DNA of 64,000 nt from a phage: sequence record PZ179883.1; one strand, given 5' to 3'. A program made the translations under genes and the position numbers. Positions 13,611-19,051 of the stretch are shown here, in pieces (position 1 is the stretch's first letter; the number at the start of each line of letters is the position of its first letter). The notes below the pieces were generated by a model. It did no database searches and was not told where the DNA came from. It worked only from the letters and a program-made list of their open reading frames with translations.

Positions 13611-13889
13611 TCAAAATGTAATTTCTAACCAATCACCATCACGCTGATCACTATTGACTTTAAAGCTAAATCCTTCTTTTCTCAGCCAATCACCAATTTC
13701 TTCAGTAATCAATTTATCACGAGCAGTACAATAATAACTAAAATATGTTTTACCTTGTTCAGCTGCTTTATTAGCAAGTTCCGAAAAATCTTTAATAAAA
13801 CACTCTAGTTTAAACTGTTTACTTTTAAGTGCTTTTTCGCGTAATTGATTAGCAAAAGATTCATTTTCATAAAGATCATACTGTTCCAT
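13611..13889 (-). CDS. hypothetical protein (24.2 position)
   Basis: 92-aa ORF, position conserved with T4. Confidence 0.7.
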   Translation of the reverse strand: MEQYDLYENESFANQLREKALKSKQFKLECFIKDFSELANKAAEQGKTYFSYYCTARDKLITEEIGDWLRKEGFSFKVNSDQRDGDWLEITF

Positions 13890-14091
13890 TTTTCACCTTC
13901 TTATTAATATGTCTTTTTCTATAGACGACTTTTTCTCGAGTTTCAAATTTATTTTTAGCAGTCATAGCTCGAGCCCATAATACAGCCACTTCCTTTGCCT
14001 GTAAGTTCAATTCACGAGCAATTTCAATGAATGACTTTCCAGACTCATGGAGTGTAAACACCACAACCTCAGTTCTCATAATCAATCTCAT
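13876..14091 (-). CDS. hypothetical protein (24.3 position)
   Basis: 71-aa ORF overlapping the preceding ORF. Confidence 0.65.
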   Translation of the reverse strand: MRLIMRTEVVVFTLHESGKSFIEIARELNLQAKEVAVLWARAMTAKNKFETREKVVYRKRHINKKVKNGTV

Positions 14092-14144: not shown

Positions 14145-14173
14145 TTTCAAAATGAAGAAAGGGGCCGAAGCCC
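14145..14173 (-). terminator. terminator after hoc (minus strand)
   Basis: GGGGCUUCGGCCCC hairpin followed by UUUCUUC on the minus strand. Confidence 0.6.
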
Positions 14174-14179
14174 CTGAGA

Positions 14180-15598
14180 TTATGGATAGGTATAGATGAT
14201 ACCAGTTTCTAAAGCAGTTTTATGAATGATGTATCCATTACGCGATTCTTGAACATCAACTTCTGGATAGTCTTTCATCATCTTCTGAAGAGTGTAACGA
14301 TGCAGGTAGTATTTACTGTCTGGATCTTCAGTTTTCCAATCTTTACCTTCTTCAGTCATTTTTTGGATTTCATCCATAACCCACCAACCGCACCAGATAT
14401 AAGCTGAGCTACGATGTGGAAGAGGATGAACATAAGGTAATTCACCTTCTGGTTCCGGAGCAACTTTATCAGTCACTTGAACTTGACCTGTGGCTTTAAC
14501 TGTTTTACTATCATAGTCAGTTGCTGTAACGACAGCAGTAACTTCAATAGTTTGACTTCCAATAGATGAGGTATCAACAGTATATACGTTAGTTGACCCT
14601 TCTACAGGAGAAGAATCTTTCTTCCATGAGTAAGTAATTTGTGCTGCTTCAGGTGCGCCAGTAACATTAGCAGTAAATGTAGCCGAAGCATCTTGCTGAA
14701 CATTAATAGAAGGAGGAGTCAATGTAACCTGTGGATTCATTGTCTTCTTATTAACCGTTAATGATACTTCATTAGAAGTAACTGTTTTTGCGTCGTAATC
14801 CGTTGCTGTTACTTGGGCTATACATTTAATTTTTTTAACTCCAGCCACAGTTGGAGTATAGTTAAATGTAGAGTTAGTTTCTCCACCGACTTGTGAATCA
14901 TCTACATACCACTGATACGTAGCAGACGCTCCATCAGGTTGAGAAGCTAATGCAGCAGTAAATTGAACCGGGTTTCCAATTACTCCAGCAGCAGGACTAG
15001 CAGGAGTTACTGCCAAGGTAGTTGTCTGCGTCTTTTTATTAACCGTTAATGATACTTCATTAGAAGTAACTTCCTTTGCATCATAATCTGTCGCGGTTAC
15101 TTGAGCTACACACTTAATTGTTTTAACTCCGCTTGTGGAAGGAGTGTAATTGAATGTAGCAGAAGTTGCTTCGCTCACAGGAGAACCGTCAACGTACCAT
15201 TGATACGTAGCAGATGCACCTGGTGGCTGTGAAGCTAAGGCAGCGGTAAATTCAATTGGAGTTCCAATCACTCCAGCATCAGGGCTACCAGGAGTTACAG
15301 CTAAGGTAGTTGTCTGTGTCTTATTTTGAACTGTGATAGTTGTACTAATTTCAGCTGTTTCAGCATCAGTATCTGGAACTGTGTTTGTTGCAACTACTTT
15401 AATAGTCTTTTGACCGGCAGGTCCTTTTAGTACATAACTAAAAGTTGCTTCAGCTCCATCTTGTGGAACATCATCTACAGTCCAAGCATAGGTAATAGTT
15501 CCACCTCCAGTTTCACCACTGGGTGTAGCAGTAAACTGCTGAGTCTGATCTATAACTCCAGTAGGTGTTTTAGGAGTTATATCAACTGTAAAAGCCAT
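14180..15598 (-). CDS. hoc: Hoc outer capsid decoration protein with an extra Ig-like domain
   Basis: 472 aa against 376 aa recalled for T4 Hoc; N- and C-termini match T4; internal 96-aa domain present twice in tandem. Confidence 0.93.
   Translation of the reverse strand: MAFTVDITPKTPTGVIDQTQQFTATPSGETGGGTITYAWTVDDVPQDGAEATFSYVLKGPAGQKTIKVVATNTVPDTDAETAEISTTITVQNKTQTTTLAVTPGSPDAGVIGTPIEFTAALASQPPGASATYQWYVDGSPVSEATSATFNYTPSTSGVKTIKCVAQVTATDYDAKEVTSNEVSLTVNKKTQTTTLAVTPASPAAGVIGNPVQFTAALASQPDGASATYQWYVDDSQVGGETNSTFNYTPTVAGVKKIKCIAQVTATDYDAKTVTSNEVSLTVNKKTMNPQVTLTPPSINVQQDASATFTANVTGAPEAAQITYSWKKDSSPVEGSTNVYTVDTSSIGSQTIEVTAVVTATDYDSKTVKATGQVQVTDKVAPEPEGELPYVHPLPHRSSAYIWCGWWVMDEIQKMTEEGKDWKTEDPDSKYYLHRYTLQKMMKDYPEVDVQESRNGYIIHKTALETGIIYTYP
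14747..15322 (-). repeat. tandem direct repeat, 2 x 288 bp, inside hoc
   Basis: Two consecutive highly similar 288-bp units encoding residues 93-188 and 189-284. Confidence 0.85.
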
Positions 15599-15607
15599 AA
15601 GTTATCC

Positions 15608-16288
15608 TTATTTTAATGTTACGAAAGAAGAATTGCGTGTTTCACGAATTAGAACTGATCCGTCACGATTAATGTAGTAAATTAAGCTAAATAAAGTTTG
15701 GTGTGCCGACGCGTGTTCAAAACTAGTTGGGTGAGATTTCCAATCCGGAGTTTCAGCGATCCATTGATAAATCCACCAAGGAACCGTGCAAAATCCTGGA
15801 TTTTTTCCAATCAGCTGAAGATTCGGACTAAAGTTTTCCGGAAGAGTAAATACAGACGGCTTTTCAGATTCAATAATCTCAGCTACAGCCTGTTCGAATT
15901 TTTCTTCAACAAAAGGAGTATCTTCAATCAAAACATTGGTATTTTCAGGAATTTTATCCGTTTCTACTACTTCAATTTTAATGTCAGATTTAACCGGAGA
16001 ATCAATCAGAAGTGCTGCTTCTGGATTGACTTCTTCATCGTCATATTTTAACCCCTCTGCAGCATCAGCAGCATTGATTAAGTCTTTAATAGATAACCCA
16101 TCAGTCTCTGGCATAGGTTCACTAGCGAGCTTCTGGAGGGCTTCTTCAATATCAATAACGATATTATCAAAAGATTTATTCTTTTTGACCTTTATACCAA
16201 ACTGTTCAGCATATTCAGCTAATTTAGCCTTAGCTTCTTTATTATCATCAAGAGCCTTCAGCTCTGCAATATAATCTTTATCTATCAT
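15608..16288 (-). CDS. inh: inhibitor of prohead protease
   Basis: 226 aa, matches T4 Inh. Confidence 0.93.
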   Translation of the reverse strand: MIDKDYIAELKALDDNKEAKAKLAEYAEQFGIKVKKNKSFDNIVIDIEEALQKLASEPMPETDGLSIKDLINAADAAEGLKYDDEEVNPEAALLIDSPVKSDIKIEVVETDKIPENTNVLIEDTPFVEEKFEQAVAEIIESEKPSVFTLPENFSPNLQLIGKNPGFCTVPWWIYQWIAETPDWKSHPTSFEHASAHQTLFSLIYYINRDGSVLIRETRNSSFVTLK

Positions 16289-16301
16289 AATATTTCCTCA
16301 G

Positions 16302-16309
16302 TATAAATA
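16302..16309 (+). promoter_or_regulatory. late promoter TATAAATA upstream of uvsW
   Basis: Exact TATAAATA 29 nt upstream of ATG. Confidence 0.65.
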
Positions 16310-16338
16310 TAGATATATTTATTACATGGTATTTAGAC

Positions 16339-17850
16339 ATGACTGACATTAAAGTACATTTTTATGATTTTAGTCACGTGAGAATTGATTGTGAAGAAAG
16401 TACATTTCATGAACTCCGTGATTTCTTTAGCTTTGAAGCTGACGGGTATCGTTTTAATCCTCGCTTCAGATATGGCAACTGGGATGGACGAATCCGTCTT
16501 TTAGATTATAATCGCCTTCTTCCATTCGGCTTAGTCGGGCAAATTAAAAAGTTCTGTGATAATTTTGGCTATAAAGCCTGGATTGACCCACAAATTAACG
16601 AAAAAGAAGAATTATCAAGAAAAGATTTTGATGAATGGCTTTCTAAATTAGAAATCTATTCAGGAAATAAAAGAATTGAACCACACTGGTATCAAAAAGA
16701 TGCAGTGTTCGAAGGATTAGTTAATCGTCGTAGAATTCTTAATCTTCCAACATCCGCAGGTAAATCTTTAATTCAAGCTTTGCTTGCACGTTATTATTTG
16801 GAAAATTATGAAGGTAAAATTCTTATCATTGTTCCAACAACTGCTCTGACAACTCAGATGGCTGATGACTTTGTTGACTATCGTTTATTCAGTCATGCAA
16901 TGATAAAGAAAATCGGTGGTGGAGCATCAAAAGATGATAAATATAAAAATGATGCACCGGTAATTGTTGGTACATGGCAAACTGTAGTAAAACAACCAAA
17001 AGAATGGTTCTCACAGTTTGGAATGATGATGAATGATGAATGCCATCTTGCCACAGGAAAAAGTATTTCATCTATCATATCAGGTTTAAATAACTGCATG
17101 TTCAAATTTGGTCTATCGGGTTCATTGCGTGATGGCAAAGCTAATATCATGCAGTATGTTGGAATGTTTGGTGAAATATTTAAGCCAGTAACGACTTCTA
17201 AATTAATGGAAGATGGACAAGTAACTGAGTTAAAAATTAATAGTATTTTTCTTCGCTATCCTGATGAGTTCACTACTAAATTAAAGGGAAAAACTTACCA
17301 AGAAGAAATAAAAATTATTACTGGGCTCAGTAAAAGAAATAAATGGATCGCTAAATTAGCTATTAAACTTGCACAAAAAGATGAAAACGCTTTTGTCATG
17401 TTTAAACATGTATCACATGGTAAAGCTATTTTCGATTTAATTAAAAATGAATACGATAAAGTTTATTACGTATCAGGGGAAGTTGATACCGAAACCCGCA
17501 ATATAATGAAAACCTTAGCTGAAAATGGTAAAGGAATAATTATAGTAGCTAGTTATGGTGTATTTTCTACTGGTATTTCAGTTAAAAATCTGCATCACGT
17601 TGTTTTAGCGCACGGTGTTAAATCAAAAATCATTGTATTACAAACAATCGGTCGTGTATTACGTAAGCATGGTTCTAAAACAATCGCAACGGTCTGGGAC
17701 CTCATAGATGACGCGGGCGTAGTTTCTAAATCAAAAACATCTTCTAAAAAATACTCGCATTTAAACTATCTTTTAAAACATGGACTTGATCGTATTCAGC
17801 GTTATGCTGATGAGAAGTTTAATTATGTGATGAAAGAGGTTAAACTTTGA
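16339..17850 (+). CDS. uvsW: UvsW DNA/RNA helicase
   Basis: 503 aa; helicase motifs (GKS Walker A, DECH); matches T4 UvsW. Confidence 0.96.
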   Translation: MTDIKVHFYDFSHVRIDCEESTFHELRDFFSFEADGYRFNPRFRYGNWDGRIRLLDYNRLLPFGLVGQIKKFCDNFGYKAWIDPQINEKEELSRKDFDEWLSKLEIYSGNKRIEPHWYQKDAVFEGLVNRRRILNLPTSAGKSLIQALLARYYLENYEGKILIIVPTTALTTQMADDFVDYRLFSHAMIKKIGGGASKDDKYKNDAPVIVGTWQTVVKQPKEWFSQFGMMMNDECHLATGKSISSIISGLNNCMFKFGLSGSLRDGKANIMQYVGMFGEIFKPVTTSKLMEDGQVTELKINSIFLRYPDEFTTKLKGKTYQEEIKIITGLSKRNKWIAKLAIKLAQKDENAFVMFKHVSHGKAIFDLIKNEYDKVYYVSGEVDTETRNIMKTLAENGKGIIIVASYGVFSTGISVKNLHHVVLAHGVKSKIIVLQTIGRVLRKHGSKTIATVWDLIDDAGVVSKSKTSSKKYSHLNYLLKHGLDRIQRYADEKFNYVMKEVKL

Positions 17851-19043: not shown

Positions 19044-19051
19044 TATTTATA
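19044..19051 (-). promoter_or_regulatory. late promoter TATAAATA (minus strand) upstream of uvsY.-2
   Basis: Exact TATAAATA on the minus strand. Confidence 0.55.

Follow-up and report, generated by a model that had tools for sequence, protein, structure and literature searches.

Hoc binds the mature capsid as a single molecule in the middle of each gp23* hexamer and is dispensable for infectivity. The Hoc fibre of T4 (NP_049793, 376 aa; PDB 5vf3, 8t1x and 8t9r) is about 180 Å long and is built from four domains (PMC10385173), and in about 650 Hoc homologues strings of Ig-like domains are kept, with 1–10 domains in the cases cited (PMC10385173). The Hoc of Serratia phage Muldoon, with 10 Ig-like domains (PMC10385173), combines the Hoc anchor with more than three such domains, while the Hoc of phage PNJ-9 is without one domain (PMC11853027). 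Taken together, these counts and the PNJ-9 variant mean that a variable number of Ig-like domains in Hoc has already been published. Here we describe the hoc gene found in a 64,000-nt stretch of phage DNA (sequence record PZ179883.1), referred to below as the window, whose product, like that of Muldoon, has the anchor and more than three Ig-like domains.

The ORF at positions 14180–15598 of the minus strand encodes 472 aa (calculated mass 50.4 kDa) followed by a stop codon, and a phmmer search against the PDB sequences matched its product to T4 Hoc (5vf3_Z, 376 aa, E = 1.7e-220). T4 hoc (1131 bp in NC_000866) is located between 24.3 and inh, and the gene order rnlB, 24.2, 24.3, hoc, inh, uvsW is common to the window, T4 and the Tequatrovirus OES_C-2, whose genome is the closest of those deposited; the site of hoc between inh and 24.3/24.2/rnlB was retained when the window was compared with T4, OES_C-2 and L003. 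Judged by its sequence and surroundings, the gene is hoc, coding for the highly immunogenic outer capsid protein of the Tevenvirinae. The lengths given in the preliminary description, 472 aa for this protein and 376 aa for T4 Hoc, were both right according to the ORF, 5vf3_Z and NC_000866. In the alignment, residues 1–106 of the window protein corresponded to T4 residues 1–106 and residues 189–472 to T4 residues 93–376, so that the difference in length is exactly one in-frame 96-aa unit. This additional unit is of the domain 2 (D2) type, and the two proteins therefore differ in their domain count.

A GC hairpin with a trailing T-run, resembling a terminator and recognized by consensus match only, lies at 14160–14175 on the minus strand, 5 nt beyond the hoc stop codon; DalCa has an annotated rho-independent terminator at the corresponding place, and NBG2 has a terminator feature under its match. 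The exact T4 late-promoter motif TATAAATA was absent just upstream of hoc or inh on the minus strand, the copy nearest to these genes on that strand being at 19044–19051. Across the whole window the motif occurred 18 times, compared with 8.6 occurrences expected from shuffles.

Some differences were also observed among the neighbouring genes. The gap between inh (15608–16288) and uvsW is only 50 bp (16289–16338), as it is in OES_C-2 and L003; in T4 the GIY-YIG homing endonuclease gene segE sits between these two genes, and the 50-bp gap indicates that the window phage is without segE at this site. UvsW (16339–17850, plus strand) has 503 aa in both the window and L003, where it is followed by a separate 76-aa UvsW.1. 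The uvsW gene of the T4 RefSeq record is annotated as 1764 bp, with a note on sequence discrepancies, and the difference in length looks like a legacy issue of the T4 annotation and not a difference in the window. The predicted product of the gene 24.3 homologue (DUF2774; 13876–14091, minus strand) varies in length, with 71 aa in the window, 67 aa in L003 and 56 aa (171 bp) in T4.

Like its gene position, the outer parts of the protein are shared with T4 Hoc. Ig-like domain 1 (D1; aa 1–94, 15317–15598, minus strand) is 84% identical in amino acid sequence to D1 of T4, and the capsid-binding domain at the C terminus (aa 377–472, 14183–14470, minus strand) is 97.9% identical to residues 281–376 of T4 Hoc, in agreement with the earlier statement that the N- and C-terminal parts resemble the T4 protein. 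Ig-like domain 3 (D3; aa 287–376, 14471–14740, minus strand), of the I-set/Ig_3 type by its Pfam match, is 88% identical to T4 D3. Between D1 and D3 are two Ig/PKD-like repeat units: unit 1, of type A, with the loop YVDGSPVSEATSATF (aa 95–190, 15029–15316, minus strand), and unit 2, of type B, with the loop YVDDSQVGGETNSTF (aa 191–286, 14741–15028, minus strand). In the Pfam search PKD scored 42.4 bits (cut-off 23.5), with its best stretch at aa 197–253, and Ig_3 and I-set were above threshold at aa 289–374. AlphaFold2, run on a 31-sequence alignment, predicted four beta-sandwich domains (aa 1–94, 95–190, 191–286 and 287–376) with block pLDDT values of 85–96 (85–94 in D1, 90–96 in unit A and 91–96 in unit B), and a C-terminal domain of low confidence (pLDDT 34–59). 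When the model was compared with the PDB using Foldseek, the best matches were themselves four-Ig strings (Dscam1 Ig1-4, ICAM-5 D1–D4 and Sidekick; probability 1.00), and their low TM-scores are due to differing inter-domain angles. The structure of RB49 Hoc (3SHS) was absent from the Foldseek top 50, the ranking being dominated by long multi-Ig chains.

Pfam, AlphaFold2 and Foldseek thus agree on a linear N-terminal string of Ig-like domains, and the claim that this Hoc has one such domain more than that of T4 was borne out by the T4 alignment, the count obtained with an HMM of the unit and the AlphaFold2 model. At the other end of the protein, the C-terminal domain is homologous to T4 281–376 and has its ESRNG loop, along with the aromatic residues that contact gp23. 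Fokine et al. 2023 (PMC10385173) list 16 gp23-contact or structural residues, namely Y293, H295, H299, R300, Y304, W306, W309, W310, D313, Q354 and E355–Y360 in T4 numbering; all of them are kept at +96, so that every gp23-contact residue is shared with T4 Hoc. We consider it highly probable that the window encodes a normal, intact four-Ig head-decoration fibre, composed of D1, A, B, D3 and the capsid-binding domain, in which the repeated units are old cassettes.

Tandem Repeats Finder reported one array at 14742–15322, with a period of 288, 2.0 copies, 78% matches and a score of 724, and a repeat search returned two direct-repeat families, each with a spacing of 288 nt. Together with a codon-phase comparison, this upheld the two consecutive 288-bp units, of 96 aa each, that had been described inside hoc; the array placed at 14747–15322 was real, although its boundaries were 6 nt off the codon phase. 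The description of the units as near-identical was overstated, their identity being 80% in protein (77 of 96 residues) and 78% in DNA (224 of 288 nucleotides). The longest exact in-register run is one of 36 nt, located at the 3′ end of each unit (15036–15071 in unit A and 14748–14783 in unit B, both minus strand), in the GTTACTTCTAATGAAGTATCATTAACGGTTAATAA region encoding ..VTSNEVSLTVNK.., and conservation between A and B at the unit ends covers these 36 nt on the 3′ side and roughly 14 nt on the 5′ side. The 64 nucleotide differences are split 11/13/40 across codon positions 1, 2 and 3, and the codons that differ comprise 32 synonymous and 19 non-synonymous changes.

Tandem repeats are a known cause of assembly errors, and the preliminary description had raised the possibility that the assembler had expanded the repeat spuriously. 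However, the copies differ at 64 of 288 positions, their differences follow a selection-like pattern over the three codon positions, the frame is open, and the 1419-bp architecture recurs in many independently sequenced genomes. The divergence of A from B and the number of independent genomes exclude an assembly artefact, to which we assign practically no probability.

To determine the relationship of the two units to the single D2 of T4, we compared them at synonymous and non-synonymous sites. Unit B and T4 D2 are 90% identical in nucleotides and 92% in amino acids (dN 0.056, dS 0.29), and this dS resembles that of the flanking domains of the window gene compared with T4 (0.18–0.35, with 86–96% nucleotide identity and dN 0.009–0.095). 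Unit A and T4 D2 are 81% identical in nucleotides (dN 0.118, dS 0.64). T4 D2 is thus the orthologue of unit B, and the domain that is extra with respect to T4 is unit A: T4 Hoc has one D2-type unit, B, whereas the window has a type A unit added upstream of it (376 compared with 472 aa). Between A and B themselves, dN was 0.127 and dS 0.94, indicating, with a dN/dS of about 0.13, that the units are old paralogues under purifying selection and not the product of a recent duplication. The dS between A and B is roughly three times the divergence of the window hoc from T4 hoc, and by this synonymous measure A and B parted about three times as long ago as the two genes did.

The two 288-nt copies follow each other in an exact tandem and in frame, as might be expected if domain 2 had been duplicated recently in the window phage or its immediate ancestors. 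However, the copies are not nearly identical in nucleotides once synonymous sites are included (78%, with a dS of about 0.94, compared with 0.18–0.35 for hoc against T4), and each unit is closer to its orthologues in other phages than to its partner. For unit B the identity to unit 2 of two cluster representatives (P0009 and P0010) is 99%, and for unit A the identity to the units of many single-copy genes is 93%. Moreover, the mean identity of units within a gene (0.79) is not above that between genes (0.80), and none of the 31 two-copy genes examined had units more than 86% identical, so a fresh duplication was not observed in this sample. A recent duplication is accordingly very improbable, and the units are best regarded as old paralogues.

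Two further possibilities concerning the units were considered and rejected. Gene conversion or concerted evolution between the units of one gene was rejected on the within-gene and between-gene identities (0.79 and 0.80, respectively). The other was that T4 D2 is an A/B chimera, representing the footprint of an unequal crossover. When T4 D2 was painted at the sites that distinguish A from B in the window, an A-like patch appeared near its 3′ quarter; this patch coincides with changes private to unit B of the window (TVAG and KKIKCI, compared with TTSG and KRIKCV in the B consensus) and gives no evidence of chimerism in T4 D2.

To place these units among those of other Hoc proteins, we typed 170 units from the 120 best cluster representatives heuristically, cutting an average-linkage clustering at 0.16 distance. 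Three types were obtained, told apart mainly by one loop, which reads YVDGSPVSEATSATF in type A, YVDDSQVGGETNSTF in type B and YVDGSLVDGETTTTF in type C; only this central loop is strongly diagnostic of type, the unit ends being mosaic. The window falls in the A-B class together with 22 other cluster representatives, its first unit having an A loop (GSPVSEATSATF) and its second a B loop (DSQVGGETNSTF). T4 D2 has the B loop, the exact T4 unit being absent from the 120 representatives. Proteins with one unit were of type A (68), B (9) or C (4); those with two units were A-B (23, window included), A-A (3), A-C (3) or B-C (1); those with three were A-B-C (3), A-B-A (2), A-A-C (2) or A-B-B (1); and two were left unclassified. 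Since the 120 proteins come from the top of the score ranking, where longer forms are over-represented, these counts are not population frequencies. Among them, A-B is the commonest two-copy arrangement. The lengths in this set were 376 (80 proteins), 377, 468, 472 (29), 567, 568 (7) and 570 aa, and the unit HMM found exactly one, two and three copies in the 376-, 472- and 568-aa classes, respectively. In the literature searched we found no explicit account of the 376/472/568 polymorphism or of a system of A, B and C cassettes, although a mention in the classic Hoc papers is possible.

In most arrays type A precedes B and type B precedes C, and among the 39 multi-copy proteins none started B-A, C-A or C-B. 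A tree built from the non-repeated flanks required at least 24 changes in copy number, compared with about 36 when the labels were shuffled, a parsimony count in which a new deletion and a recombinational exchange of D2 between alleles are indistinguishable. In addition, proteins with 100% identical flanks showed the architectures B-C, A-C and A-B-B, and such differences in copy number between identical flanks support a recombinational change of domain number. The flanks of the window protein are nearest to those of single-A genes (97.9% in amino acids), and in one of these genes, that of L003, the flanking DNA is 96.8–97.8% identical in nucleotides.

Based on these comparisons, the D2 region of Tequatrovirus phages is most probably an array that varies between one and three old cassettes (A, B and C), each kept functional by purifying selection, and its alleles differ in that whole cassettes have been lost or exchanged. 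T4 has B only, most 376-aa relatives have A only and the window phage has A-B. The likeliest route would be homologous recombination during mixed infections, unequal but in register, at the conserved ends of the units, with the identical 36-nt runs as the most probable crossing-over site. The preliminary idea that the repeat is a substrate for recombinational expansion or contraction was upheld in part: it has comparative support in the occurrence of one, two or three units in exact 96-aa steps, sometimes between identical flanks, but from the sequences recombination plausibly acts mainly as the loss or exchange of old cassettes, and at 78% identity with identical runs of at most 36 nt, recombination within the gene may be inefficient. 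Extending this, we tentatively suggest, as a possibility somewhat short of an even chance, that D2 is an ancient ordered A-B-C array whose loop types are held distinct by selection (no concerted evolution, dN/dS about 0.13), that phage populations pass between one, two and three cassettes through such recombination at the unit ends, and that this standing polymorphism tunes the fibre.

The A-B arrangement might instead have been built by unequal recombination between a single-copy A allele and a T4-like B allele in a mixed infection, and not have descended from an ancestral array. Tequatrovirus genomes show a high degree of mosaicism, each of A, B and C occurs as a single-copy allele, and the flanks of the window gene are closest to those of single-A genes (97.9%); its unit B is closest to the B units of other A-B genes and is 92% identical to that of T4. 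However, such joining would be expected to give both orders, yet no array beginning B-A, C-A or C-B occurs among the 39 multi-copy proteins, and two D2-like units are already present in the divergent DalCa. Had the arrangement been founded once and then spread, the order would likewise be fixed, and to this extent the explanation overlaps with an ordered ancestral array. We regard the joining of alleles as unlikely, and prefer the loss or exchange of cassettes from a pre-existing array.

To evaluate how common hoc genes with more than one unit are, we searched the public records with the window gene. The preliminary description had implied that the duplication was special to this phage, which the comparison of hoc lengths contradicted. 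Megablast returned 679 phage records, of which the top 31 rows listed were single-piece 1419-bp matches with 92–96% identity, and the full-length matches include PP01, NBG2, G28, IME340 and BF15. In a tblastn search, an evenly spaced sample of 60 rows across 1374 records was taken, in which rows 1–9 were intact 472-aa proteins, row 10 was a split two-copy gene and rows 11–26 were mostly of 376 aa. From these rows, 190–230 records with at least two units are estimated among the approximately 600 close relatives, or about one third, a figure derived from the evenly spaced sample and not an exact census of phage records. The four-Ig Hoc proteins of OES_C-2, BF15, 4E10, PP01, vB_EcoM_NBG2, vB_EcoM-G28 and IME340 are equal in length to that of the window, have the A-B arrangement and are encoded by genes with 92–96% nucleotide identity to it. 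Only point differences separate the window hoc from other 472-aa A-B genes; no record of the exact protein was found in the public assemblies, and the nearest is 96% identical. The A-B Hoc of the window is a common, ordinary and already-catalogued variant.

In several independent two-copy hoc genes, which span 1415–1417 bp, the annotation gives two overlapping ORFs ('Hoc part 1 / part 2'), as in those of Escherichia phage FriedrichMiescher/Bas39 (L005 501–1920), SfPhi01, vB_EcoM-PM107/PM108, NHEP10, UPWr_E2 and vB_EcoM-101117BS1. The two overlapping ORFs point to a frameshift inside the repeat region, which could be due to pseudogenization, a shared sequencing error or recoding.

Longer and shorter forms were observed around the same flanks. 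A three-copy query recovered a hoc of 1704 or 1701 bp in at least 20 deposited phages, among them ESh26, T4_ev151, YUEEL01, UGKSEcP1/2 and slur03/14. The five-Ig, 568-aa Hoc proteins of Shigella phage ESh26 and Escherichia phages YUEEL01, UGKSEcP1/2 and T4_ev151 have flanks and D2-type cassettes like those of the window, but three cassettes (A-B-C, A-B-A, A-A-C or A-B-B) in place of two. Despite the T4-derived name of Escherichia phage T4_ev151, its hoc (LR597660.1, 107091–108794) has three cassettes and encodes 568 aa, whereas T4 itself has one, which suggests either that recombination brought in the hoc region or that the phage is loosely named. At the other extreme, the Hoc proteins of PNJ-9 (283 aa, PMC11853027) and KIT06 (283 aa) share D1, a D2-type unit and the C-terminal domain with the window but, unlike it, are without D3 and have a single D2 unit. 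In KIT06 (L008 601–1452) D3 is cleanly deleted, with the junction ...SNEVSLTV/TDKVAPEP..., like the 'variant Hoc' of PNJ-9.

More distant Hoc proteins also exceed three Ig-like domains. The 471-aa Hoc of DalCa has two D2-like units that are far more diverged. The Hoc of the Klebsiella Jiaodavirus JIPh_Kp122 (468 aa, only approximately 51% identical to the window protein) has, like that of the window, the C-terminal anchor and more than three Ig-like domains, but its fourth Ig-like domain comes from an independent duplication of the D3 type, whereas that of the window is of the D2 type. The JIPh_Kp122 gene (L007 301–1707) encodes two tandem and highly similar D3-type domains (KKTMSGVSVTLTP...TVTKTG.VTITK).

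With respect to T4 Hoc, the additional domain is expected to make the window fibre longer by roughly one Ig domain (about 45 Å), and a change in reach and adhesion, as had been proposed, is plausible. Residues E29 and G33 of the PNJ-6 Hoc have been reported to bind MUC2 (PMC11150434), and both are present in D1 of the window protein. In the PNJ-9 Hoc, S183-L184-T185 has been reported to bind MUC2 (PMC11853027); in the window Hoc SLT occurs at 183–185 and again at 279–281, and the segment VSLTVNKKT, of which it is part, would be displayed twice. T4 D246, also among the residues reported for mucin binding, has its equivalent in D342. A longer fibre displaying the SLT segment twice could have an altered adherence to mucus.

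For the window itself the arrangement is of little consequence, as it is a standard hoc allele. If true, the cassette polymorphism would tune the length of the fibre, the number of SLT copies and possibly glycan specificity or antigenicity in a protein that T4 vaccines and vectors use as their display platform and that is behind the model of phage adherence to mucus. Natural Hoc proteins with one, two or three interchangeable D2 cassettes offer a ready isogenic series in which mucus adherence, aggregation and immunogenicity can be related to valency and to the length of the fibre, and the three-Ig Hoc of T4 should not be taken as the sole reference architecture when therapeutic T4-like phages are annotated or engineered.
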